Below are positions 1 through 23,182 of a stretch of DNA of 64,000 nt, in pieces. Made by a program: the position numbers and the translations under genes. This DNA is from Escherichia coli (GTDB taxonomy: Bacteria; Pseudomonadota; Gammaproteobacteria; Enterobacterales; Enterobacteriaceae): NCBI RefSeq assembly GCF_024223415.1, contig NZ_CP100500.1, one strand, 5' to 3'. Each line of letters starts with the position of its first letter. Position 1 is the first letter of the stretch. The notes under the pieces were generated by a model. That model worked only from the letters and a program-made list of their open reading frames with translations. It ran no database searches and was not told the origin of the DNA.

Positions 1-1
1 T

Positions 2-1555
2 AAAGTGTTCCTTGAAAAATACACCACCGGGTATCCGCAGTTTGAAGAATATCTGACAGGTAAGAGCGATAATACTCCGAAGAGCGCGGCCTGGGCGGCG
101 GAAATTACTGGCGTACCGGAAGCGCAGATAGTCAAACTCGCTGAACTGATGGCGGCGAATCGCACAATGCTGATGGCAGGCTGGGGAATTCAGCGCCAGC
201 AATATGGTGAACAGAAACACTGGATGCTGGTGACGCTGGCGGCGATGTTAGGGCAGATTGGTACACCGGGCGGCGGTTTTGGTTTCTCTTATCATTACTC
301 CAACGGTGGCAACCCGACGCGTGTTGGCGGCGTGCTGCCGGAAATGTCTGCGGCGATTGCCGGACAGGCCAGCGAGGCCGCTGATGATGGCGGAATGACG
401 GCGATTCCTGTTGCCCGTATCGTCGATGCGCTGGAAAATCCTGGCGGCAAATATCAGCATAACGGTAAAGAACAAACGTATCCGAATATCAAAATGATCT
501 GGTGGGCGGGTGGTGGTAACTTTACCCATCACCAGGATACTAATCGTCTGATCAAAGCATGGCAGAAACCGGAGATGATCGTCGTTTCTGAATGCTACTG
601 GACTGCAGCTGCTAAACATGCAGATATCGTATTACCGATCACCACATCGTTTGAGCGCAATGACTTGACGATGACCGGTGATTACAGCAACCAGCATATT
701 GTGCCGATGAAGCAGGCTGTCGCTCCGCAATTTGAAGCGCGTAACGATTTTGACGTGTTTGCCGATCTTGCTGAATTACTGAAACCTGGCGGAAAAGAGA
801 TCTATACCGAAGGTAAAGATGAAATGGCGTGGCTGAAATTTTTCTATGATGCCGCTCAGAAAGGTGCCCGTGCGCAACGCGTCACTATGCCAATGTTTAA
901 TGCCTTCTGGCAGCAAAATAAACTGATCGAAATGCGCCGCAGCGAGAAGAACGAACAGTATGTTCGTTATGGTGATTTCCGCGCCGATCCGGTGAAAAAT
1001 GCGCTGGGTACGCCAAGCGGCAAAATTGAGATTTACTCCAAAACGCTGGAAAAATTTGGCTATAAGGATTGCCCGGCACACCCAACCTGGCTTGCGCCTG
1101 ATGAGTGGAAGGGTACCGCCGACGAGAAGCAGTTGCAGCTTCTGACCGCACATCCGGCACACCGTTTACACAGTCAGCTTAACTATGCGGAACTGCGTAA
1201 AAAATATGCGGTTGCCGATCGTGAACCAATCACTATTCACACCGAAGATGCTGCTCGCTTTGGTATTGCGAATGGTGATCTGGTGCGTGTCTGGAACAAA
1301 CGTGGTCAGATTCTGACAGGTGCGGTGGTGACTGACGGGATCAAAAAAGGCGTGGTATGCGTGCATGAAGGTGCATGGCCAGATCTGGAAAATGGCTTGT
1401 GTAAAAACGGCAGTGCGAACGTGTTAACCGCGGATATCCCCAGCTCGCAGCTGGCAAATGCCTGTGCCGGTAACTCTGCGCTGGTGTATATCGAAAAATA
1501 TACGGGTAACGCACCGAAGTTAACGGCGTTTGATCAGCCAGCTGTTCAGGCGTAA
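2..1555 (+). CDS. torZ: trimethylamine-N-oxide reductase TorZ/BisZ, C-terminal part (5' end outside window)
   Basis: ORF 5..1555 translation reads as the C-terminal region of a molybdopterin oxidoreductase; sits next to cmoB-cmoA as in E. coli. Confidence 0.85.
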
Positions 1556-1599
1556 GACGTGAATAGCGCCCGGAAACGGGCGCAGAGGTTATGCAAACG

Positions 1600-1710
1600 T
1601 AAAGCTGCCTGATGCGCTATGCTTATCAGGCCTACATAGTCCCTGCAATATATTGAATTAGCAAGGTTTTGTAGGCCGGATAAGGCGTTCACGCCGCATC
1701 CGGCAGTAAT
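1600..1710. repeat. REP-like palindromic units in the torZ-cmoB convergent intergenic region
   Basis: Imperfect inverted repeats gcctgatgcgctatgcttatcaggcctaca and gtaggccggataaggcgttcacgccgcatccggca, typical of enterobacterial REP elements; coordinates approximate. Confidence 0.5.
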
Positions 1711-1719
1711 ACCAGACCT

Positions 1720-3867
<2,148 letters not shown>

Positions 3868-3919
3868 ACAAACTCCCTTTAAAATGGCCGATGGCACCTG
3901 TCTATGATAGGTGGCAAAT

Positions 3920-4678
3920 TCAGAAAAGAGAAGATTGCTGTGGAATAGCCGGAACTGCTCCGATCTCTGGAAGCGTTTTACGTAAGTCTTCCCACAGGGT
4001 ATGTACCAGTTCCGGTGCCTGGGCAATGTCTGGCGTATGTAAAAAAAGATAAGGCGTAGTGGTCTGATGCCACTGCGCTAATTTCTGTAACCAGACCTGA
4101 AATAATTCCCGGTTTTGCGTCATATCATCACTACCGATAAAACGGATCAGCGGATTTGTCGCCGTCAGTACAGCATGTACCGGAACTTTAGGTTTTTTTC
4201 GTTGAGCGTCGCGAATAGCTTCACTGTGTGGACGTGCTGCATGAACCGGGCGGCTGTCTAAAATCACCCGATTAACGCCGCGCTGATGTAAACCGCGATT
4301 AAGCGTTTGTTCCTCTTCCCCTTTGGCGAAAAACTGTGGATGGCGGACTTCCACACCATAATTAAATTCGCCAGGGAGAGAATCGAGAAAATGCCAAAGC
4401 GCAGGCAGCTCCCGTGGGCCGAATGTGGCAGGCAGTTGCAGCCAGTATTGCCCAATGCGCGGAGCCAACGGTGACATGCGGGTCAAAAATTCAGTCACTA
4501 AATCATCGCAATGTCGTAATGCTGCCTGATGCGAAATGGTCGCCGGAAACTTAAAACAGAAGCGGAAGTCATCTGTGGTCTGTTCACGCCAGCGCAGGAC
4601 AACCTCGGGTTTCGGCAGGGCGTAAAGCGTGGTGTTGCCCTCCACGCAGTTAACATGACGGGTATTGAAGGCTAACAC
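3920..4678 (-). CDS. yecE: DUF72 protein YecE with 5' end replaced by prophage sequence
   Basis: Body of the protein reads as YecE; the first ~10 codons (MLAFNTRHVN) differ from my recollection of the K-12 N-terminus, and the ORF overlaps the 3' end of the integrase gene. Confidence 0.75.
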   Translation of the reverse strand: MLAFNTRHVNCVEGNTTLYALPKPEVVLRWREQTTDDFRFCFKFPATISHQAALRHCDDLVTEFLTRMSPLAPRIGQYWLQLPATFGPRELPALWHFLDSLPGEFNYGVEVRHPQFFAKGEEEQTLNRGLHQRGVNRVILDSRPVHAARPHSEAIRDAQRKKPKVPVHAVLTATNPLIRFIGSDDMTQNRELFQVWLQKLAQWHQTTTPYLFLHTPDIAQAPELVHTLWEDLRKTLPEIGAVPAIPQQSSLF

Positions 4679-4690
4679 ACTGATTTTAAT
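4640..4690. other. putative prophage attachment junction (attL) within 5' end of yecE
   Basis: Point where YecE-like sequence ends and the integrase C-terminus overlaps; exact core not determinable without the other junction. Confidence 0.4.
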
Positions 4691-5985
4691 AAGTTTCTTG
4701 TGTCACTTTGGTGACCATGGGACATCATTGGGACATAATCTGCCAGCTTCTGATTCAGCATTGCGATCTGTTCTGCATTACTGTCAGTCATCCATGCTCC
4801 GTATACATTGAACACCATCTGGGCACTTGCATGGCCCATCTGGCTGGCAATGAAGCTTGGGTTTGCTCCGGCAGATAATGACCAGCACGCATAAGTGTGT
4901 CGTGACTGGTATGCTTTCCGGTGCCTGATGCCCGCACGCTTAATGGCTGTTTCCCATGAGTCGCCAATAGAATCTACCTTGTAGATAAAACCGACCTGTT
5001 TGCTTTTTCTAACCACCTGGGGGTTAAATACGAAAGTACATTCATGGTTCACTGTACGTCCATATTCACGTAGTTGAACCTTGATGTGGTGCTGCTTACC
5101 CAGTCTTGTCATTTCAGCCTGATTTTTCAGGACACTGATAGCGGGCTGGATAAGATGCACAACCCTGTTTGTACTTGCTTCAGTTTTAGGTAGAGTGAAC
5201 TCACCGAGTTTCGTATAATTGCGCCTGATAGTAATTGTTCCTGCTTTCAGATCGATATCTTCCCAGGCCAGGGAGACCAGTTCACCATGACGCATTCCTG
5301 TGTACACAGCCAATGACCACAGGTTTTTCGTCTGCTGATGTCGGCAAGCATCTATCAGGCGAATAAATTCGTCACGAGTTAGCGGATCTGGCTCTGCCCT
5401 GGCTCTTTTAAGAGGCTTAATTCCCTGGAAGGGATTTGCTTCTAAGTAACCGTGATCTGCAGCAAACTGAAACATTCCAGCGATTGTCGTCATGTAATAA
5501 TTTACAGTAACGACGCTCCGTCCTTTTGCTGCTGCTTTGTTTTTCGTTGAATTCTGGTACCCGGTCAGCAAATCTTTCCTGATATACAGCAATTCCTCTT
5601 TAGTTACCGATGACACCAGTCTGCTGCCTCCAATTTTCGGAACCATCGTTCTTGCAACGGATTCATAGCGATTGAATGCATTTGCAGAGATCTCCATTCG
5701 TTTCAGATCCAGCCACTTTTCTTCAAGTTCCTTCACCGTAATTTCTTTTTTACTTACCCCAAAAGCCTGAAGGTTAGGGGAGTCAGGGAACTGTGCAGCA
5801 TAATCAAAGCTTCCTGTGCGGATGGCAAAACATACCGATGTCCGCAGTTCCCCGGCGATCTTCCTGTTCTTGGCAGTGTCAGGGACACCAAGATTTTCCC
5901 TGACACGTTTACCTTTAAAATTAAACCAGATGCGTAATGTGCCGCCGTGGTTTTCGACGCCTGTTGGATATTTGACTTTATCCAT
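4672..5985 (-). CDS. int: phage integrase (tyrosine recombinase)
   Basis: 437 aa; N-terminal arm-binding-like region and C-terminal catalytic domain with conserved R..H..R..Y context (RHTYACW). Confidence 0.9.
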   Translation of the reverse strand: MDKVKYPTGVENHGGTLRIWFNFKGKRVRENLGVPDTAKNRKIAGELRTSVCFAIRTGSFDYAAQFPDSPNLQAFGVSKKEITVKELEEKWLDLKRMEISANAFNRYESVARTMVPKIGGSRLVSSVTKEELLYIRKDLLTGYQNSTKNKAAAKGRSVVTVNYYMTTIAGMFQFAADHGYLEANPFQGIKPLKRARAEPDPLTRDEFIRLIDACRHQQTKNLWSLAVYTGMRHGELVSLAWEDIDLKAGTITIRRNYTKLGEFTLPKTEASTNRVVHLIQPAISVLKNQAEMTRLGKQHHIKVQLREYGRTVNHECTFVFNPQVVRKSKQVGFIYKVDSIGDSWETAIKRAGIRHRKAYQSRHTYACWSLSAGANPSFIASQMGHASAQMVFNVYGAWMTDSNAEQIAMLNQKLADYVPMMSHGHQSDTRNLLKSVC

Positions 5986-6040
5986 TGATACCTCCAGACG
6001 CCCAAGAGCGATACGAGCTTACATACTTCATGGCATTAAA

Positions 6041-6277
6041 TCACCCAGGTTGTTTGTTTTTCATTGAAGCGACCCAGGCATCTATTGCTTTTCTGTTATA
6101 CATACATTCACTGGAAGGCTTTGGATTACCGTCTGGTGATACGTGAATATACTCTCTTCCAACCATCCAGCATTCTTTCCGGGCCCGAAGAATTGTGCCT
6201 GGTTTGAGCCCGGTAATTGCGATTAGAACGCTTTCACAAACCCATTCATTGGGAGCCAGTTGAATCACATTGCCCAT
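6041..6277 (-). CDS. xis: putative excisionase
   Basis: 78 aa basic protein immediately upstream of int in the same orientation. Confidence 0.55.
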   Translation of the reverse strand: MGNVIQLAPNEWVCESVLIAITGLKPGTILRARKECWMVGREYIHVSPDGNPKPSSECMYNRKAIDAWVASMKNKQPG

Positions 6278-6435
6278 GCATTACCTCACACAACACTCAG
6301 CCCACGGCAGTGGCACCACACTTCAAACATTCGTTTCACAATTTCACGACAGTAGAAACCGTCAACATCTCGTGTCAGGTCATAGCGATTGCCGTAACGC
6401 TGGTGGACCCATTGTTCAAATGCTTTATTCATTCT

Positions 6436-6678
6436 TTACTTCCTTTTCATGGCCCGTAATTTTTTCAGATGAGTTTCCTGTTCTGTTTCTGCCAGAATTT
6501 GTCGGTATTCCTGATGATCGAGCCGTTCAAACGTTTCATTAAAATCGTTTATTTTTACCGACTGTGTTCGCCCATCCATTCTTCTGTACAACACGGTGTT
6601 ATTTATGCAGCGAATAATTTTTACCGGGTAACCGGCACTGTCGGTATACAGTTGTCCCTGATTAATCAAAGCGAACAT
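6436..6678 (-). CDS. hypothetical phage protein
   Basis: ORF 6436..6801, most likely starting at internal Met (MFALINQ...); no recognisable domain. Confidence 0.35.
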   Translation of the reverse strand: MFALINQGQLYTDSAGYPVKIIRCINNTVLYRRMDGRTQSVKINDFNETFERLDHQEYRQILAETEQETHLKKLRAMKRK

Positions 6679-6709
6679 TTTTTCTCCTGCTCTCTGAATA
6701 GTGAGAACT

Positions 6710-7075
6710 TCAGAGTCGTATGTTTGTAGCGGGTTCAATGCTGATGATTTCTGCTGAGATAAGCATCCCGGCCAGCCAGAGCTCTCCGGACAGGTTTTCA
6801 TCCTTGCATTCCAGTCCGCCGATATTAATGGTGGCTATGATATCGCGCTTATCCTCGACTTCTTCATAAGGCAGCGTTGCGTACAGGCTTTCAATAGCGC
6901 AACTGATAACATCCAGTCCGGTCAGATTGCCGCCGACAGTGACTTCGAATGTTTCGCGGTATTCCCATAGCCCGAAAGTTAATCGAACGGTTTGTTTTGC
7001 CATGCGCCCGCATGACGTCAGATTCGGGTCATAGTTCATTATTTGCGGTTGAGTATTCTGGGCGTTCATCTGCAT
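6710..7075 (-). CDS. hypothetical phage protein
   Basis: ORF 6710..7141, likely start at internal Met (MQMNAQ...); no recognisable domain. Confidence 0.35.
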   Translation of the reverse strand: MQMNAQNTQPQIMNYDPNLTSCGRMAKQTVRLTFGLWEYRETFEVTVGGNLTGLDVISCAIESLYATLPYEEVEDKRDIIATINIGGLECKDENLSGELWLAGMLISAEIISIEPATNIRL

Positions 7076-7109: not shown

Positions 7110-7937
7110 TTATTTAACCTGGATAAATGGTGTATTAGCACCGCTGGTCATGTATTGCGGCAGTGTGCCGTTCCATTTATTGATGGCTTCCAGCTCCATA
7201 ACGCCGGGGTTCTGACGCAGAGCTTCACCGCGTAAACGAATAGCATCAGCTTCGGCCTGGGCTTTTGTGCGAATCGCATCAGCCTGTCCGGCAGCTTCTG
7301 CGCGCAACATATTGGCTTCCGCTTCGCGCTGTTTTACTTCCTGCTCGCGCTGCAGTGTTTTCTGGTTCGCCGTGACTTTGGCATTAATGCTGTCGATAAC
7401 TGTTGGCGGGTACTCCGGCTTACCCACATATGAGAGGCTCATTACCTGAATACCGATAGGTGTCATCTCTGCCTGAATGTCTTTAAGAGCTTCATCCAGC
7501 AGCTCAGACTTGCCGCCGTCGATAAATTTGTCAGTGGTCATTTTGCTGGCCAGTCGGTTGAGTGCGTCGGCGATCTTCTGGCGCAGGTCAGTGTCGGTAA
7601 TGTCATCCACGCCTTTGCGGTAGGTCTGAAACACCGTGGTAACTTTGGATGGATCAACTTTGTAGGCCACGCCAATGTGATAGCCGATGGTTGTACCGTC
7701 ACTCATCTGGAAACTGAACGGTTCATCGTAGGTCTTCATTTGTTTGAAGGTGGGGAAGATATAAACTTCAGTATTCCAGCCAGTCCAGTAGCGACCAACA
7801 CCGACCACCTCACCGACGCCTTTGTCGTCGCCCAGTTTATTTACCTTGATGCCAACATTACCTGGTTCAACGCGATCGCAACCGACAAGGCCAATAGTCG
7901 GCAGAACAATGGCTAAAGCAAAAATAATTTTTTTCAT
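7110..7937 (-). CDS. SPFH/band-7 (prohibitin/stomatin-like) domain lipoprotein
   Basis: 275 aa; signal peptide with lipobox (LVGC); central SPFH-like region followed by Ala/Glu/Gln-rich coiled coil. Confidence 0.65.
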   Translation of the reverse strand: MKKIIFALAIVLPTIGLVGCDRVEPGNVGIKVNKLGDDKGVGEVVGVGRYWTGWNTEVYIFPTFKQMKTYDEPFSFQMSDGTTIGYHIGVAYKVDPSKVTTVFQTYRKGVDDITDTDLRQKIADALNRLASKMTTDKFIDGGKSELLDEALKDIQAEMTPIGIQVMSLSYVGKPEYPPTVIDSINAKVTANQKTLQREQEVKQREAEANMLRAEAAGQADAIRTKAQAEADAIRLRGEALRQNPGVMELEAINKWNGTLPQYMTSGANTPFIQVK

Positions 7938-10357: not shown

Positions 10358-10386
10358 ATATTATGCTTTGAGAAATAGGCTGTCAA
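10358..10386 (-). promoter_or_regulatory. strong sigma70-like promoter reading leftward (pL-like)
   Basis: Minus-strand TTGACA, 17-bp spacer, TAATAT, ~50 bp upstream of the HTH gene start; coordinates approximate. Confidence 0.45.
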
Positions 10387-10411
10387 GAAAAAATTGATAC
10401 CGTGTGTTTTA

Positions 10412-10436
10412 GGCAGAAAAAAACGGGCAAAGCCCG
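10412..10436 (-). terminator. hairpin plus T-run downstream of cI
   Basis: Minus strand reads aacgggctttgcccgttttttt just after the cI stop; coordinates approximate. Confidence 0.5.
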
Positions 10437-10449
10437 TTAAAATCAAAGA

Positions 10450-11145
10450 CTAACCAAATCTGTTTATATTGAATGGTACTGATGAGATCACTTTAGACTG
10501 GATATAAAGCAGAGCTAACCCCTCTTTTTCGATGCTCCATGGTTGATAATTGGGGTTATCAGATAACACCATGATTTTGCTTCCAATTTTTTGAAGTCTT
10601 TTCACGTAGCATTCTCCATCAAAACAAAATGCATAAATGCCATCGCCATCAAAATAAGTTACTGTCTTATCAAGAAAAAGAAGGTCGCCAGGTGAGATTG
10701 TGGGAGCCATACTGTCTCCTCTGGCGTTACCTATTTCTATATTTTTGAATGCCCGATTTCCAACAAGGCGTCGGGCATATTCAGGATCAAGTTCTATTGA
10801 GCGCACTACATCTATCAAGTCACCACGGACATGAGTTCCATCACCGCAACTAAACTCAACATCAAGGACATTAAACACGACGCTATCTGTTCTTGTCTGG
10901 TGTTTCTCTTGCGAGGAAAAGGTTGGTGAGGAGTCTTCACCTAAGAACCAGGATTGTGGATAACCGCTAATCTCGGATAAATGCGCGAGCTTATCACTCC
11001 GTGGAAATGTTTTTCCTGTTGTCCAGTACTGCACTGATTGCGCACTCACACCTAACTTGCGGGCCAGTTGAGCCTGAGTCCATCCTTTTGCTTTCAGCAT
11101 CGCGGCTATTCGATTTTCCGTGTTTTTGACGTTCTTCATGACCAA
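10450..11145 (-). CDS. cI: CI-like repressor (HTH plus S24 LexA-type autopeptidase domain)
   Basis: 231 aa; N-terminal HTH (KGWTQAQLARKLGVSAQSVQYW), C-terminal S24 peptidase motifs (GDSMAPT...KRL); divergent from cro. Confidence 0.88.
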   Translation of the reverse strand: MVMKNVKNTENRIAAMLKAKGWTQAQLARKLGVSAQSVQYWTTGKTFPRSDKLAHLSEISGYPQSWFLGEDSSPTFSSQEKHQTRTDSVVFNVLDVEFSCGDGTHVRGDLIDVVRSIELDPEYARRLVGNRAFKNIEIGNARGDSMAPTISPGDLLFLDKTVTYFDGDGIYAFCFDGECYVKRLQKIGSKIMVLSDNPNYQPWSIEKEGLALLYIQSKVISSVPFNINRFG

Positions 11146-14782: not shown

Positions 14783-15670
14783 GTGACAGCGATGATGACA
14801 CTTAACCTGCGTGAACAACAAACAAGACTACAGGCGCGGATGGATGAGTTACGGGCAGAGATTGCATTTGCTCAGAATGGCGAAAAGCCATGGCCTTATC
14901 GATCCTGCTGGATGCGTGAAGGGCGCGGGTGTTGCGAAAAACATGGCGAATACCACACACATATTCTGGTGTGGAGCGATCGTAATGGCGAGGATAGAGA
15001 AAAAATTTCATGCTGCCCTGACTGCTTGATAGCTGAGGCCAACGATTTGACCATGGAGCTGTCGTCCCTCAAGGCGGAAGAACTGACTGATAACGCCGGA
15101 ATTGCTCTGCGTTTTCGGGACTGCGAGTTTGATAATTATCTGGAGGTTAATCCTGACGCAGCCAGAAATCTTGCGGCCTGTCGCCGCTATGCGGAGAACT
15201 GGCCAGATATGCTGGAGAACGGTACCAGTCTTGTTATGACCGGCAGTTGCGGTACCGGGAAAAATCATCTGGCGGTATCAATGGCAAAACACATCATCCG
15301 TAACTATCTGGCCAGTGTGGAGATCACCGACGTGATGCGCCTTACCCGTGCTGTGAAAAACTGCTGGCGGAATGACAGTGAAAAAACAGCGGATGACGTC
15401 ATTGAGCATTATGCGTCACTGGATTTGCTGATCATCGACGAAGTCGGCGTTCAGTTTGGCAGTGCGGCTAAAATGGCCATTTTGCAGGAAATTATCAATG
15501 CCCGGTATGAGGGTATTTTGCCAACTATCTTGATCAGCAACCTTTCACCGGAAGAATTGTGGGCGTTCATCAGTCCCCGGATTGCCGACAGGATCACCGA
15601 TGGCGGGCGCAACTGGTTGTCGTTTAACTGGCCCAGCTACCGTTCTCGTATCGGAGGTGTTGCCGCATGA
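14783..15670 (+). CDS. DnaC-like helicase loader (IstB-type AAA+ ATPase)
   Basis: 295 aa; Walker A GSCGTGKNHLA and Walker B LLIIDEVG. Confidence 0.85.
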   Translation: MTAMMTLNLREQQTRLQARMDELRAEIAFAQNGEKPWPYRSCWMREGRGCCEKHGEYHTHILVWSDRNGEDREKISCCPDCLIAEANDLTMELSSLKAEELTDNAGIALRFRDCEFDNYLEVNPDAARNLAACRRYAENWPDMLENGTSLVMTGSCGTGKNHLAVSMAKHIIRNYLASVEITDVMRLTRAVKNCWRNDSEKTADDVIEHYASLDLLIIDEVGVQFGSAAKMAILQEIINARYEGILPTILISNLSPEELWAFISPRIADRITDGGRNWLSFNWPSYRSRIGGVAA

Positions 15671-17067
15671 CCAGCCAGAACACCCCGGCATGGCGTAACG
15701 ATGACCTGGAAGGTGCGGTGATTGGCGCGTTTTTTCTGCGTGGGGCAGATCCGGAAGTGATGGATATTCTGGCCACGCTTCCGGCGGATGTATTTTTCGT
15801 GCGTCAGTACCGGGATATTTACGCGGGGATTTGCAGACAGGCCCGCGTATCCGGCGTCATTGACCCCGTGCTGCTGTGCAATGAGATGCCGGAACTTGCC
15901 CCGGTGATTACCGACACCGGGCGCAAAACCTGGGTGAAGTCTTCACTGGAACACTATGTTGCAGCGCTGCGGCGAAATGCCGTACTGCGCGATGCAGAAA
16001 AAACACTGACCGAAGCATTACAGAATTTACGGGATGCACATACCTGCGAAGCAGCCGAGGATGCCCTGAAGGATGCGCAGAACATGATGGCCTCACTGTC
16101 GACCGGAAAGGGCGTCATTCAGCCGGTTCACATTGATGATGTCCTTCCGGAAGTGGTGGGCCGTGTTGAATGCCGGAATCAGGGACTGGAGAAATCCAGA
16201 ACGCTGATGACCGGTATTGATGAACTGGACGCAAAAACAGGGGGTATGGAGCCAGGCGACCTGGTATTCATTGCGGCTCGTCCTTCGATGGGGAAAACCG
16301 AACTGGCGCTGGACATCATCGACAAGGTGACTGAGCAGGGGCATGGCGTGCTTCTGTTCACCATGGAGATGGCGAACATCCAGATTGGTGAACGTATGGT
16401 GTCTTCTGCCGGTGGAATGCCGGTATCCCGTCTTAAGTCTGCTGCCCGTTTTGAAGACGAAGACTGGGCACGTTTCTCACAGGGTGTGGGACGAATGACG
16501 GGGCGTAATATCTGGATGGTGGACCAGGCAAATCTGACCATTGATGAGATATGTGCAACCACGAGGTACCACCGGATGAAGCATCCGGAAACGGCGCTGG
16601 TGGTGGTTGATTACCTCGGTCTGATTAAAACCCGCAGCACGGGGCGTCACGACCTTGCTGTGGGGGAAATCTCAAAGGGACTTAAAAGTCTGGCAAAATC
16701 CGGCGGTTTCCCGCTGATTGCACTGAGTCAGCTCTCCCGTGGTGTGGAATCCAGACCCAATAAACGCCCCATGAACTCGGATCTGAAAAATTCCGGGGAA
16801 ATAGAGGCGGATGCCGACATCATTCTGATGCTTTACAGGGATGAGGTGTATAACCCGGATACACAGGCCAGAGGCATAGCAGAAATCAACATCACGAAAC
16901 AGCGTAATGGCACTCTCGGGACCATTTACCGGCGTTTTCATAACGGGCATTTTCTGCCTGTGGATCAGGAAAGCGCTCAGGTTCTTTCCACACCCATGAC
17001 GCCGGGCAATCCGCGCAGATACAGCAATAACCGCATGTCGGGCAGTAAAGCGGAGCGTTTATTTTGA
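15667..17067 (+). CDS. DnaB-family replicative DNA helicase
   Basis: 466 aa; RecA-like C-terminal domain with Walker A (ARPSMGKTE) and DnaB-like motifs. Confidence 0.88.
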   Translation: MTSQNTPAWRNDDLEGAVIGAFFLRGADPEVMDILATLPADVFFVRQYRDIYAGICRQARVSGVIDPVLLCNEMPELAPVITDTGRKTWVKSSLEHYVAALRRNAVLRDAEKTLTEALQNLRDAHTCEAAEDALKDAQNMMASLSTGKGVIQPVHIDDVLPEVVGRVECRNQGLEKSRTLMTGIDELDAKTGGMEPGDLVFIAARPSMGKTELALDIIDKVTEQGHGVLLFTMEMANIQIGERMVSSAGGMPVSRLKSAARFEDEDWARFSQGVGRMTGRNIWMVDQANLTIDEICATTRYHRMKHPETALVVVDYLGLIKTRSTGRHDLAVGEISKGLKSLAKSGGFPLIALSQLSRGVESRPNKRPMNSDLKNSGEIEADADIILMLYRDEVYNPDTQARGIAEINITKQRNGTLGTIYRRFHNGHFLPVDQESAQVLSTPMTPGNPRRYSNNRMSGSKAERLF

Positions 17068-17366: not shown

Positions 17367-18362
17367 GTGACCGTGAGAGCACTACTGACCCCTGAAATTG
17401 CCCCGCGTATGGGGATCGTATTGTTCAGGCCAGGTTCAGAGCTGATGCCCCTGTTTATGCAGGGGCGTGTCCTGCTGGAGCCTGAGCCGGAACGTTATTC
17501 ATCTTTCGCCAGTGGTGCCGTTCCGGCGGCATCACAACCGCTGGCGGATGATCCTGCCGTACGGGCCGTGTTCCGCAATGAGGCAGTAATCCGTCGTGCT
17601 GGTGGCGTGGAATGTCTTGAAAGCTGGTTACTTCGTGAAAAAGGCTGCCAGTGGCCTCATTCCGACTGGCACAGCGAGAACATGACCACAATGCGACACG
17701 CTCCGGGTGCAATCCGTCTGTGCTGGCACTGCGATAACCAGCTGTGCGATCAGTTCACGGAACGGCTGGAATCAATGGCAACGGATAACTGTGCTCGCTG
17801 GGTGTTGTCTGTCGTGCGTCGGGATCTCGGTTTTGATGATAGTCATGTTGTGACAATGCCGGAACTGTGCTGGTGGCTGGTTCGTAATGACCTGGCGGAT
17901 ACCTTACCGGAAAGTGCAGCCCGTAAGGCACTGAGATTACCGAATCCTGTTGTGCCGTCTGTCACCCGGGAGAGTGACCTTGTTCCTTCGGTTCCTGCCA
18001 CCAGCATTATCCAGGATAAAGCGAAAAAGGTGCTGGCGCTGAAAGTGGATCCGGAGTCGCCGGAGTCTTTTATGTTACGCCCAAAACGTCGCCGCTGGGT
18101 TAATGAAAAGTACACGCGCTGGGTTAAGACACAGCCGTGTGCATGTTGTGGAAAGCCTGCTGATGATCCCCACCACCTGATAGGTCACGGTCAGGGGGGA
18201 ATGGGTACAAAAGCGCATGACCTCTTTGTGTTGCCTTTGTGCAGAAAGCATCACGACGAGCTGCATGCGGATACCGTGGCATTTGAAGTGAAGTATGGCT
18301 CCCAGCTGGAGCTGATATTTCGTTTTATCGATCGTGCGCTGGCAACTGGTGTGCTGGCCTGA
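17367..18362 (+). CDS. DUF968-like protein with C-terminal HNH-type Cys/His motif
   Basis: 331 aa; C-terminus CACCGK...HHLIGHG...CRKHHDELH resembles an HNH nuclease finger. Confidence 0.55.
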
Positions 18363-18364
18363 TT

Positions 18365-18802
18365 TTGTGGAGAAAGTTGATGCGTGATATTCAAATGGTT
18401 CTTGAACGTTGGGGGGCATGGGTCGCAAATAATCATGAAGACGTGGAATGGTCAGGCATTGCCGCCGGATTTAAGGGGCTGATACCGTCAAAAGTAAAAT
18501 CGCGATCGCAGTGTTCCGATGATGACGCGATGATTATATGTGGTTGTATGGCTCGCCTGAAAAAGAACAACGCCGATATGCATGACATGCTGGTTGATTA
18601 CTACGTATATGGGATGACGTTCATGAAGTTAGCAATGAAACATGGATGTTCGGATACGCATATTGGAAAGCGTTTGCAAAAAGCTGAAGGAGTGGTTGAT
18701 GGTATGTTGATGATGCTAGATGTTCGCCTTGAGATGGATCGATATGTGAGCACAAATTATTCGATACGTCGTAAAACTGCGTCCTCCAGGGCAGGGATAT
18801 AA
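18365..18802 (+). CDS. late gene antiterminator Q
   Basis: 145 aa; resembles the Q family of E. coli cryptic prophages ([14 protein letters not shown]...). Confidence 0.75.
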
Positions 18803-18805
18803 GGC

Positions 18806-18838
18806 GTACAAAATAAAAAATGGGCGCAAAGCGCCCAA
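18806..18838. terminator. hairpin with flanking A/T runs
   Basis: gggcgcaaagcgccc stem; on the minus strand it is followed by a T-run, downstream of the porin pseudogene; coordinates approximate. Confidence 0.45.
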
Positions 18839-18980
18839 GTATAAAAACCAAAAAGGTTAATAAATAACAGAAAGTTCGTTGGAAAAGTTAAGTACTGTCC
18901 AACGTTTTGCAGTGGCATGAGGGCACCACTTTATATGCCAGAAAAGTTCTCACTCCCCCGGCATATTCTTACAGAATAAA

Positions 18981-20087
18981 TCAGAACTGATAAACCAGAC
19001 CAACAGCGACAATATCGTCGGTTGATACTCCTGTTCTTTCAGTGAATTTATTTTTATCGAGCATATTGATTTTGTAATCTATGTATGTAGACATATTTTT
19101 GTTGAAGTAATAAGAAGCCCCTACTTCAACGAATTTTTCAATATATCCGTCATCATGTTTTTTACTAATATCAGTACTGGATGAAAGGTTTTTTGCTTTA
19201 GAGTGGGTATAAGCAAGAGACGGGCGTAATCCAAAGTCGAACTGGTATTGTGCCACAACAGTGAAATCTTCGGTTTTATTCGCCACTCCTGAAATATTAT
19301 CACCATACGATATTGCACGGGTATTATTTGTTTCACCATAACTGGCAGCCAGGTACAGATTATTTGCGTCATATTTTACCCCGGTGGCCCACTGTTCAGC
19401 TTTTTTCCCTTTACCAAGCTCAGCCTTTTTCTGATTTTTAGTACGATCAGCAGCGCCGTATGCTGCGACAAAACCAAATCCTTCATATTCATAGCTGACA
19501 GAGCCACCTACACCCTCTCCGTTTGAAGTATCTGGTTTATCCTTGCGTTCATTTTTTCCCAGATACTGAATTGCAAAGCTAAGCCCATCGACCAGTCCAA
19601 AAAAGTCAGTGTTGCGGTATGTGGCAACACCGCCTACACGACCAACGAAGAAGTTATCCTTTTGCGCTGCGGTAGGTCCAAACTCCGGGAAGACGTCAGT
19701 GTAGCTTAATGCGTCGTACACCACGCCGTAGTTACGACCATAATCAAGAGAGCCAGCATCTGCAAGCTTCAGACCAGCGTATGCCAGGCGAGTCTTGTTT
19801 CCAGTTTGAGCTCCATCCCCTTCAGGGTTGTTCCCCTGGAAATTATATTCCCACTGACCAAAACCAGTAATATAATTATTTATTTGGGTTTCACCTCTGA
19901 ATCCAAGGCGTGCGTAAGTCTGATCTCCGTTTTGGTCCTTATCAGAAGAAAAATAATGTAAACCAACTGCTTTACCGTATAAATCCACTTTGTTTGCATC
20001 TTTATTGTATATTTATGCTGCATTTGAAGACGTTGCCAGAAATACTGATGCTGCTACAGCAGAAAGTGCCACTGTTAAATTTTTCAT
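18981..20087 (-). pseudogene. OmpC/OmpF/NmpC-family porin gene interrupted by an in-frame TAA at codon 25
   Basis: Hand translation from the ATG at ~20087 gives signal peptide MKNLTVALSAVAASVFLATSSNAA, then TAA (20013..20015) where porins have Glu of AEIYNKD, then [15 protein letters not shown]... continuing as ORF 18981..19988. Confidence 0.75.
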
Positions 20088-20685
20088 TTTTTATCCTCTG
20101 GTGGGAGTTAATTGGACGACAAAATGCTATCAGGATGAAAATTTAATTTCTGTGTATAATGTATACAAGGAAAATTAAGGAGTCCGATTCTTTATATGTG
20201 ATCACTATCACAAAATAAGAAGTCATGCAAACTAATAAATAGATGGCTATCTTTCACTCAGAAAATTAAGATCAATCTTTTTTATTAGAAGTGCTAAATA
20301 TATTTAATTATTTGGGTTTATGAGTTATTTATATAACCTTAATAAAGACATTACTTTTGAAGAAAAATACGTGCATAGAAGAATGCATAATCTTTAATTG
20401 TATCTTGCCAAACGTCGCAACAATCCAGAGATTGTCTGTGGGGTGAATCATGCAGCATGCAGGGTATGAACAAACACTTTACGATCGTAAAAGTATGCAT
20501 ATCATGGTAAGAGTGGTTCCTACGCCACACAACTTAAACCCGCAGCCAGGCGGTTTTTTACATCGAAAATCTGCACCGGACATTAAGCTCTTTGGCGGAC
20601 CAGATAAGAGGTGCGCTTAGTTGGGTTTGTCGGGCTTTCTCTGAGATTTGCGGTATTAATCCCGTAACGTTATTATGCTGCTCGA

Positions 20686-20761
20686 GGCCCTTTAGCTCAG
20701 TGGTGAGAGCGAGCGACTCATAATCGCAAGGGCGCTGGTTCAAATTCAGCAAGGGCCACCA
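20686..20761 (+). tRNA. tRNA with CAU anticodon (Met, or Ile2 if lysidine-modified)
   Basis: Hand-folded cloverleaf: acceptor GGCCCTT/AAGGGCC, D-arm TAGCTCAGTGGTGAGAGC, anticodon loop CTCATAA, T-loop TTCAAAT, 3' CCA; coordinates approximate. Confidence 0.75.
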
Positions 20762-20762
20762 A

Positions 20763-20839
20763 CCGCTACTAGCTCATCAGGAAAGAGCGTCAACCCTTTA
20801 AGTTGAGTGCGCTAGGTTCGATTCCCCGCTGGCGGTCCA
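20763..20839 (+). tRNA. tRNA-like sequence, degenerate (possible tRNA or tRNA pseudogene)
   Basis: D-arm (GCTC...GAGC) and T-loop (GGTTCGATTCC) are tRNA-like and 3' ends in CCA, but T-stem has mismatches and anticodon loop CCTTTAA lacks U33. Confidence 0.35.
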
Positions 20840-20841
20840 GC

Positions 20842-20914
20842 GCCGACTTACCTCAGTCGGCAGAACAGTTTAGTTGTAACCATCAGGCCACCACTTCAAT
20901 TCCGGTAGTCGGCA
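20842..20914 (+). tRNA. tRNA-like sequence, degenerate
   Basis: 7-bp acceptor pairing GCCGACT/AGTCGGC and TTCAATT T-loop, but weak D and anticodon stems; no encoded CCA. Confidence 0.3.
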
Positions 20915-21254: not shown

Positions 21255-21527
21255 ATGAGAATGGACGAACGATACAGTAACGCTGCATACGGCAGCGCAG
21301 GACTTGTTGCGTTCTTTGCCAGCCTGTCACTGCAGGATTGGGGATTTATTATCGGCGTGGCGTTCAGTATCATTCTTGGCGTTCTTACTTATCGCCTTAA
21401 CAAACGGGAGCAGGAAAAACGAACCCGCATATTGCTCGAAATTCTGGAACGAACTAATGCCGGTAATGTTCCGGCTACGGCACATGCTGTGGCTGAGATT
21501 GCGAAAAAGGCACCAAAAGAAATATGA
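21255..21527 (+). CDS. class II holin (pinholin-like) with MRM dual-start motif
   Basis: 90 aa; two hydrophobic helices (LVAFFASLSL..., FIIGVAFSIILGVLTY), charged C-terminus; Met1-Arg-Met3 resembles holin/antiholin dual starts. Confidence 0.6.
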   Translation: MRMDERYSNAAYGSAGLVAFFASLSLQDWGFIIGVAFSIILGVLTYRLNKREQEKRTRILLEILERTNAGNVPATAHAVAEIAKKAPKEI

Positions 21528-21683
21528 CGAATATCCCGGGAGTGAGGGGATAATATACCTTTTAACAAAATCCGGGAACATGAAACGCCCGGAACGTTTC
21601 ATGAGGCATGCCCCGTGGGGAGCAGGGCATAACTGTGCGGAATAGCTTTCATTGTGATATCAATAATCACGGTATTCAAAATA

Positions 21684-22061
21684 TTACGGGCCTGTGGGAT
21701 CAGGTTGTTTTTTGTCTGATTCCAGAGGGAAGGGACGCTGTTTCGGTTCTCTGAACTTTAGTGATAATGAATTGAAAATCCTCATTTTTTGCTGCCATGC
21801 ATAATGTCTGTCCCATGAACAGGGGGGGCTCAATTCTTCATTCACCCATGCGTTAATATCTTGTTTCAGGTGTTGAAGCATACGGGGTGTTAATGCACTC
21901 ATAATAATATCCAGCGTTTTATGCGAGAGTTTACCGTAAGGGTCTGCAAGGATGCTGCTCGTTGCTTCGTTATTATCCACCATAAGTGGAAGTAGCGCTG
22001 ATTTAACTTTTTCTGTCATTAGTTGCAAAAATCTACTGCGCAAATTTTCTTTACTGTTCAT
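21684..22061 (-). CDS. hypothetical protein between holin and endolysin (opposite strand)
   Basis: 125 aa ORF, no recognisable domain. Confidence 0.4.
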   Translation of the reverse strand: MNSKENLRSRFLQLMTEKVKSALLPLMVDNNEATSSILADPYGKLSHKTLDIIMSALTPRMLQHLKQDINAWVNEELSPPCSWDRHYAWQQKMRIFNSLSLKFREPKQRPFPLESDKKQPDPTGP

Positions 22062-22184
22062 TTCTGAAGCCTCATCTGTTGTCGTTTGGTTTTCCTGAAC
22101 GGGTATGTTTATGAGACATGCTGGTACTGGATTATATACCTGATATATCCAGGGTTATAAACCTTTAGATCCTGATAAATATAC

Positions 22185-22718
22185 ATGAACGCAAAAATCA
22201 GATACGGCCTGTCGGCTGCCGTTCTGGCGCTGATTGGTGCTGGCGCATCTGCTCCTCAGATACTTGATCAGTTTCTGGACGAAAAAGAGGGTAACCACAC
22301 AACGGCATACCGCGATGGGTCCGGCATCTGGACCATCTGTCGGGGTGCCACGATGGTGGATGGAAAACCCGTTTTTCCCGGAATGAAGCTGTCGAAGGAA
22401 AAATGCGACCAGGTTAACGCTATTGAACGTGATAAGGCACTGGCATGGGTGGAGCGCAATATTAAAGTACCTCTGACCGAACCACAGAAAGCGGGTATTG
22501 CGTCATTCTGTCCCTATAACATTGGCCCCGGTAAGTGTTTCCCGTCGACGTTTTATAAGCGGCTTAATGCCGGTGATCGAAAAGGCGCCTGCGAGGCGAT
22601 TCGCTGGTGGATAAAGGATGGTGGGCGCGATTGCCGCATACGTTCAAATAACTGCTATGGACAGGTTATTCGTCGTGACCAGGAAAGCGCATTAGCCTGT
22701 TGGGGGATAGATCAGTGA
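22185..22718 (+). CDS. SAR endolysin (T4-lysozyme-like, GH24)
   Basis: 177 aa; N-terminal signal-anchor-release helix ([15 protein letters not shown]), catalytic E..D..T triad context ([20 protein letters not shown]). Confidence 0.85.
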
Positions 22719-23182
22719 GCAGAGTCGCCGCGATTATTTATGCTCTGGTTATCTGCATCATCGTCTGCCTGTCGTGGGCGGTCAATCATTACCGTGATAA
22801 CGCCATCGCCTACAAAGAACAGCGAGATAAAAAAGTCAGTGAGCTGAAGCAGGCGACCGCCACCATTACTGACATGCAGCAACGCCAGCGTGCTGCTGAT
22901 GTACTCGATGCTAAATACACGAAGGAGTTAGCTGATGCGAAAGCTAAAAATGATGCTCTTCGGCGCAAGCTTGATAATGGTGGCAGGGTGCTCGTCAAAG
23001 GAAAATGCCCTGTGCCATCCTCAGCCGAAACCTCCAGCGCCTCCGGCATGGGCAATGATGCCACCGTCGAACTCTCTCCAGTTGCTGGACGAAACGTTCT
23101 CGGTGTCCGGGACGGAATTATCCGCGACCAAACAGCACTGAGAACGCTTCAGGAATACATCAGGACGCAATGCCTTCGATGA
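22700..23182 (+). CDS. i-spanin Rz
   Basis: 160 aa; N-terminal TM helix, coiled-coil periplasmic domain, overlaps endolysin 3' end. Confidence 0.75.
22935..23141 (+). CDS. o-spanin Rz1 (lipoprotein embedded in Rz in another frame)
   Basis: 68 aa; lipobox LIMVAGCSS, Pro-rich mature part; fully embedded in Rz. Confidence 0.7.

Follow-up and report, generated by a model that had tools for sequence, protein, structure and literature searches.

An OmpF-like porin gene carried by a lambdoid prophage of Escherichia coli is interrupted at codon 25 by a TAA codon, which is very probably a genuine nonsense mutation that has turned the gene into a null allele. The gene lies in a 64,000-nucleotide stretch of an E. 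coli chromosome (contig NZ_CP100500.1; hereafter the window) that contains the prophage. As originally predicted, it is situated between the gene for the late antiterminator Q (18380-18802) and the lysis genes encoding holin, endolysin and spanin (21255-23182), all of which were identified by PHROG matches (Table 1). The porin gene is on the strand opposite Q and the lysis genes and is convergent with Q. A GAGGA motif lies 6 nt 5' of its ATG, with a calculated anti-Shine-Dalgarno duplex of -5.8 kcal/mol. Translation of the minus strand from this ATG gives the peptide MKNLTVALSAVAASVFLATSSNAA, followed by TAA and then by 343 sense codons that end in VGLVYQF and a TGA. The substitution is G>T at position 20015 on the coding strand (the plus strand letter is A), and apart from the TAA no decay is visible elsewhere in the gene. 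The hand translation and coordinates on which the original prediction was based were exact, as were the T that it placed at about 20015 and its description of an intact remainder of the frame. In the list of open reading frames the gene appears as a 335-aa GTG-started frame at 18981..19988 on the minus strand. A porin frame with one internal stop does not look like a chance pattern, because the frame with Glu25 restored is 100% identical to a 368-aa porin found on 551 contigs in a large protein collection, where the truncated 335-aa product is found on 1 contig.

Table 1. Features of the porin cassette and of the neighbouring prophage genes in the window.
Feature	Coordinates	Strand	Basis
DnaB-like helicase	15667-17067	+	PHROG
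DUF968/HNH protein	17367-18362	+	PHROG
Q-like late antiterminator	18380-18802	+	PHROG 79, E 9e-52; PF06530 in related loci
Structured 3'UTR of the porin gene, homologue of the nmpC 3'UTR (ipeX region)	18811..18980	-	nhmmer, fold, terminator scan
Natural stop codon TGA of the porin gene	18983-18981	-	script-checked coordinates
OmpF-like prophage porin gene, 368 codons + TGA, now very probably a pseudogene	18981..20087	-	minus-strand translation, Pfam, homologues
In-frame GTG, codon 34, opening the 335-aa ORF called by gene callers	19986..19988	-	ORF list
Premature TAA, codon 25 (Glu2 of the mature protein)	20013..20015	-	GAA in relatives
Predicted signal peptide, codons 1-23 (MKNLTVALSAVAASVFLATSSNA)	20019..20087	-	alignment with OmpF precursor
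Porin start codon ATG	20087-20085	-	script-checked coordinates
Shine-Dalgarno GAGGA of the porin gene	20098-20094	-	script-checked coordinates
AT-rich (29% GC) region 5' of the porin gene, presumed promoter and 5'UTR	20088..20450	-	GC content, conservation
Three tRNA-like genes	20686-20914	+	ARAGORN; Rfam tRNA 67.8, 31.2 and 19.8 bits
Holin	21255-21527	+	PHROG
Endolysin	22185-22718	+	PHROG
Rz spanin	22700-23182	+	PHROG (Rz-like spanin)
Rz1, embedded in Rz	22935-23141	+	lipoprotein-like sequence

The hydrophobic leader, 23 residues long, ends in SNA and aligns with the end of the OmpF precursor leader (...TANA/AEIYNK, where the slash marks cleavage). Signal peptidase is predicted to cleave after residue 23 (SNA/AE), and in structure-sequence alignments the mature chains of solved OmpF structures begin at query residue 24, an alanine. 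The stop therefore replaces residue 2 of the mature protein, not residue 1. The original prediction had put it exactly at the cleavage site; there is indeed a nonsense codon, but it lies one codon past the predicted site. A true start downstream of the stop was considered and rejected: annotations of the relatives start at the upstream ATG, the leader can be aligned to that of the OmpF precursor, and the mature OmpF N-terminus aligns ahead of the stop.

Intact relatives of the gene are few among complete genomes. It is present in four of 5,426 complete E. coli genomes, each with an intact CDS that RefSeq names only 'porin' (1107 nt in Ch1, TUM1886 and ECCNB12-2; a 1104-nt allele in GF60), and alignment and codon table give GAA at codon 25 in all four. 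Further loci were found through the neighbouring helicase, which yielded ten loci with the same prophage backbone (among them L010-L016, L018 and L019), whose porins are 368 aa long in eight cases, 367 aa in one (GF60-type) and 359 aa in one. Codon 25 is GAA at all 12 loci where it was read (the four RefSeq genomes and eight further loci), and a 13th, the GF60-type L017, has a full-length 367-aa porin. Since the TAA is the sole lesion relative to the GAA codon or full-length porin of these four RefSeq and nine further loci, the single GAA-to-TAA change that had been proposed is directly shown. The 359-aa product (L018, GCA_964252025.1) was considered as a second independent 5' lesion and rejected as an assembly artefact, the 5' end of its porin gene (locus positions 10380-10508) being replaced by Illumina Nextera adapter/index sequence of the CAAGCAGAAGACGGCATACGAGAT...CTGTCTCTTATACACATCT type.

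The porin gene in the window differs from those of Ch1 and ECCNB12-2 at 3 of 1,107 positions, the nonsense change included. The restored protein (P0121), one of the intact prophage alleles that also include WP_096986151.1 in Ch1, is identical to the window porin except at codon 25. Over 11,706 bases, two positions (15470 and 20015) separate the window from a sister prophage, L019. The lesion is thus one G:C to T:A transversion, and a very recent one, because the rest of the prophage is nearly identical to that of sisters with an intact gene. What has happened to the porin is unremarkable: an accessory gene was recently lost in one lineage. The change at 15470, the only other difference from L019, is an E230K substitution in a DnaC/IstB-like helicase loader. 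K230 is shared with the assembly GCA_900482235.1 and with the Logan (SRA-derived) assemblies of runs ERR3437215, SRR19977205 and SRR19977217, and is therefore a useful lineage marker.

The same TAA is present in a second public record, GCA_900482235.1 (contig UDHK01000011.1; locus L005), which was reached via its truncated product. The two records differ by a single base between window positions 7402 and 17766. The prophage arrangement in GCA_900482235.1 is unlike that of the window, and there are ten SNPs in the 235 bp 5' of the porin gene, where its sequence is of the GF60 type. Because GCA_900482235.1 is a second record of the lineage and not a copy of the window, a one-off consensus error is less likely, although the record is not fully independent: it belongs to the same prophage lineage and may come from a close relative or from the same strain. 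Its contig also carries another porin copy, of the GF60 type, at a distance of about 3 kb (within positions 1-7008). Judged by the coding types of the two copies, their 235-bp upstream regions seem to have been swapped, and the DUF968-Q modules are repeated. This arrangement reflects either recombination between prophages or assembly problems.

An error of sequencing or consensus building, with GAA and an intact porin in the real genome, is on this evidence unlikely. Such an error would fit the rarity of the T, which occurs in the window and a single other record whereas the exact intact protein is on 551 contigs, and its presence in a prophage that is otherwise 2 nt away from an intact sister. 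The truncated product is also absent from the Logan assemblies of the three K230-bearing runs. The Logan contigs of ERR3437215 and SRR19977205 are 100% identical to the replication module of the window and that of SRR19977217 has one gap, and all three end at the repeat boundary ahead of the porin gene; either the porin repeat interrupts the contigs or the stop arose after K230. Against an error, the T recurs in a record that was deposited separately and differs in prophage arrangement and upstream SNPs, and it is a substitution that lies in no homopolymer (AGCA-T-AAAT). Most errors in long-read consensus sequences are indels. A real nonsense mutation at codon 25 is the reading that we favour.

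The porin had been predicted to be of the OmpC/NmpC type. That it is a general porin is borne out by Pfam, with PF00267 (Porin_1) and PF13609 matching the 335-aa product and its homologues, but the subtype is not. Among solved structures, E. coli OmpF is matched best (E 8.7e-151 for the precursor and 1e-146 to 1e-151 for OmpF structures), with weaker structure matches to OmpC (about 1e-117 to 1e-120) and PhoE (3e-108). Query residues 24-368 align to mature OmpF residues 1-340, up to the C-terminal ...VYQF. The NCBIfam OmpF, OmpC and PhoE models match at E values from 1e-162 to 1e-125, with OmpF first, and the OmpF equivalog NF007446 scores 540.4 bits, short of its cutoff of 583. We interpret the protein as OmpF-like and not as an OmpF orthologue. 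The gene lies in a prophage and not at the ompF locus. Compared with chromosomal E. coli OmpF, the mature N-terminus is almost the same (AEIYNKD(G/A)) and the alignment runs residue for residue from mature Ala1 to the C-terminal Phe, whereas identity to proteins named OmpF is about 66% and the signal peptide and loop regions diverge. The nearest non-allelic protein is the GF60-type sister allele (79% identity, 203 contigs), followed by proteins named OmpF or PhoE at 63-69% identity.

Porins annotated as NmpC, OmpD or OmpC are encoded in 42 phage records. Alignment to nmpC/ompD-family porins had been suggested as a check, and the identity to these phage-record porins is at most 60%. At the DNA level, the phages collection contains nothing near-identical to the porin gene, and its protein-level matches are likewise limited to 60% or less. 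Because phage porins of the NmpC/OmpD type stay at or below 60%, beneath the identity to OmpF, the window porin is OmpF-like and not NmpC-like, and it is a separate lineage in the cassette slot that the NmpC/OmpD type also uses. When intact, it would be a Sec-exported, 16-stranded general-diffusion porin, with a predicted channel and trimer.

The position of the gene is nonetheless that of a known prophage cassette. In the DLP12 (qsr') prophage of K-12, nmpC occupies the slot between Q and the holin and is encoded on the strand opposite to them; the porin genes of phages Perceval, Turner and PhiR30_1 have the same slot and orientation. NmpC of DLP12 belongs to the same protein family as the window porin, and the pre-terminator 3'UTRs of the two genes are homologous. 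The window prophage differs from DLP12 in its Q family (PF06530), in having DUF968/HNH instead of rusA-ylcG and in its tRNA array; in addition, the phage porins of the NmpC/OmpD type share only about 60% protein identity with the window porin. Quiescent prophage porin genes have been known since the 1980s. K-12 nmpC too is quiescent through a lesion (PMC3333887), which is an IS5 insertion at the 3' end and not, as in the window, a point nonsense mutation at the 5' end. Intact counterparts of DLP12 nmpC are annotated as NmpC, OmpD or porin in phages Perceval, Turner, PhiR30_1 and ev017. A further intact counterpart in lambdoid phages is Lc of PA-2. The NmpC/OmpD-type porin of PhiR30_1 (locus L009, 2374-3532) is annotated as two overlapping CDS, which suggests a frameshift close to the 5' end, and phage 3W is likewise listed with two porin features. 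The window repeats the case of nmpC, with another porin lineage and another lesion.

We infer that the intact prophage would carry the porin as a stand-alone cargo gene, with transcription starting in an AT-rich upstream region of its own and running counter to the late operon, and that the intact cassette would end at its own terminator after an ipeX-like 3'UTR. The G:C to T:A transversion converts codon 25 from GAA to TAA. Ribosomes would then release a 24-residue peptide, consisting of the signal peptide and one Ala, as the sole expected product, and with translation ending there no porin would reach the outer membrane. Both RF1 and RF2 act on UAA, at which termination is more efficient than at any other codon. 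An absence of porin protein is suggested by where the stop falls, by the missing Shine-Dalgarno at the restart codon and by a set of tRNAs in the window that includes no suppressor. Downstream of the stop, about 1 kb of mRNA would be left untranslated, including a C-rich, G-poor stretch near 19150-19270, and this RNA would probably be less stable and exposed to Rho-dependent termination. The output of the 3'UTR would thereby presumably be lowered through polarity.

Two routes by which the gene might still be expressed were considered: re-initiation at the GTG at 19988, and read-through of the UAA with the help of a tRNA, either a suppressor or a near-cognate one, that might come from the neighbouring array. 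The GTG is in frame, a mere 24 nt after the stop, and is the sole in-frame start candidate in codons 26-120, so restart was possible in principle, as the original prediction had noted together with the loss of the signal peptide that it would entail. No Shine-Dalgarno precedes it (-0.9 kcal/mol for the anti-SD duplex, against -5.8 kcal/mol at the native start). Started at the GTG, the product would be missing its signal peptide together with mature residues 1-10. No porin can be exported if it has no signal peptide, and since the product would lack these N-terminal barrel residues as well, it is predicted to be neither exported nor assembled and to remain a cytoplasmic, N-terminally clipped barrel. 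Restart at this codon was therefore rejected as a route to a functional porin.

Read-through has in its favour that the tRNA array, 600 bp away, includes a TTT anticodon, which is near-cognate to UAA. Among the window tRNAs, ARAGORN, at default and relaxed settings, and Rfam detected the anticodons CAT and TTT as well as a degenerate GTT, with no TTA. The TTT tRNA scores 31 bits and has a broken T stem, and an identical tRNA is present in Ch1 and GF60, both of which have GAA at codon 25; because it accompanies GAA there, it is not an adaptation to the stop. A phage-encoded ochre suppressor was rejected for the same reasons, namely that no TTA anticodon is present and that the same tRNAs accompany intact GAA alleles. 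Continued expression by either route is extremely improbable. In the array itself, the first gene, with anticodon CAT, is a good tRNA. The second and third tRNA-like genes (20763-20914) look degenerate: ECCNB12-2 has a well-formed tRNA-Arg(TCT) where the window has the TTT-anticodon gene with its broken T stem, and 11 positions distinguish the two, and the third gene, at 19.8 bits, is under the Rfam tRNA gathering score. The tRNAs are the only Rfam matches between 18700 and 21400.

The 3'UTR of the porin gene is about 170 nt long and folds far better than shuffled sequences (z = -6.7). A terminator scan placed the intrinsic terminator of the gene just ahead of the Q stop codon (stem 18837-18821 followed by a T run). 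An nhmmer search with the K-12 nmpC 3'UTR gave a sole match in the window, at the syntenic place (E 5.4e-7), and three hairpins are kept by compensatory changes, with 9 pairs altered on both sides. The 3' region of K-12 nmpC reportedly constitutes ipeX and lowers OmpC and OmpF, a result said to come from Castillo-Keller et al. (2006, J Bacteriol). IpeX is counted among the sRNAs that target ompC mRNA, and NmpC is unexpressed in K-12 owing to an insertion element (PMC3333887). The prophage sRNA svsR was considered as a candidate mapping to the porin locus and rejected, as svsR lies in the cI gene (PMC12247714).

The stop might have uncoupled the two outputs of the cassette, such that no phage porin is made while the ipeX-like 3'UTR is still transcribed and the prophage acts as a pure post-transcriptional repressor of OmpC and OmpF. 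If true, the consequence would be a lower-permeability envelope rather than the swap of one porin for another. Such uncoupling requires either transcription to the 3'UTR past about 1 kb of untranslated RNA or a promoter of the 3'UTR's own, and it also requires that the diverged ipeX homologue, a putative regulator, be active; we regard it as very unlikely. The association of an OmpF-like porin lineage (about 60% identity to NmpC) with an ipeX-like 3'UTR is a lead on 3'UTR-derived porin regulators, and this side observation may prove more useful than the stop codon.

The AT-rich region 5' of the porin gene is conserved along with the gene in Ch1, TUM1886, GF60 and L005. A promoter scan of the porin strand in the upstream region gave no consensus sigma-70 promoter, and with the promoter thus not located the intact gene might itself be silent in lysogens. 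On the plus strand, a promoter-like TTTACG-16-TATCAT and, directly after it, a short hairpin of GC pairs with a T6 run were found just 5' of the tRNAs (20478-20565), and this site is conserved even in TUM1886, although the DNA around it is different there. The site is a candidate for the late promoter PR' and its terminator; PR' would be expected between the porin start and the tRNAs or holin. If the site is PR', the porin cassette lies between Q and PR'. In ECCNB12-2 (locus L003, 2873-4148) the interval that separates the tRNAs from the intact porin gene contains an IS5-like element, ISKpn26, about 100-300 bp 5' of the latter. The element, reminiscent of the IS5 in K-12 nmpC, may switch the cassette off or on.

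The ends of the prophage offer two further observations. The left flank (window positions 1-5985) has torZ-cmoB-cmoA-yecE and an integrase, which corresponds to the yecE attachment site, and the right flank (49300-60248) has yciE/yciF and the trp operon, which corresponds to the ompW-side site. The yecE-side and trp/ompW-side host regions are widely separated on the K-12 map, by about 0.6 Mb. These flanks suggest either a chromosomal inversion via recombination of two lambdoid prophages or a misassembly. At the right end of the prophage, positions 47876-49285 encode a 469-aa protein whose C-terminus matches the anchor of YadA-type trimeric autotransporters (E 1.3e-18). It is a second surface-protein cargo gene, for which the prophage-borne Eib proteins are the comparison.

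Instead of neutral decay, the loss might be an adaptation, the null allele having been selected because an extra porin is a liability as a receptor for phages or colicins, as an entry route for antibiotics or as a burden on the envelope. Selection for the null allele would agree with the disruption of other phage porin genes, such as by IS5 in K-12 nmpC (PMC3333887), with ISKpn26 just 5' of the porin in ECCNB12-2 and the split OmpD annotation in PhiR30_1, and with the position of the stop at the earliest place that abolishes the mature protein. It is set against one mutation in one lineage, while the identical intact allele is kept on 551 contigs. Within the porin's own cluster no parallel nonsense or frameshift alleles were seen: the shorter members examined are contig-end fragments or lack the N-terminal part, and the 359-aa product of L018 is the adapter artefact. 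A single event looks the same under selection and under drift, and we consider an adaptive loss conceivable but doubtful.

The TAA allele is already in GenBank as SRA09280.1, where it is misnamed 'outer membrane protein F'. The correct annotation is a porin pseudogene (nonsense, codon 25) and not a 335-aa outer membrane protein, and the strain should not be assumed to express a lysogenic-conversion porin. Beyond correct annotation the significance is small; the allele adds one more case to the phage-borne porin genes that are easily lost or silenced in lysogens.
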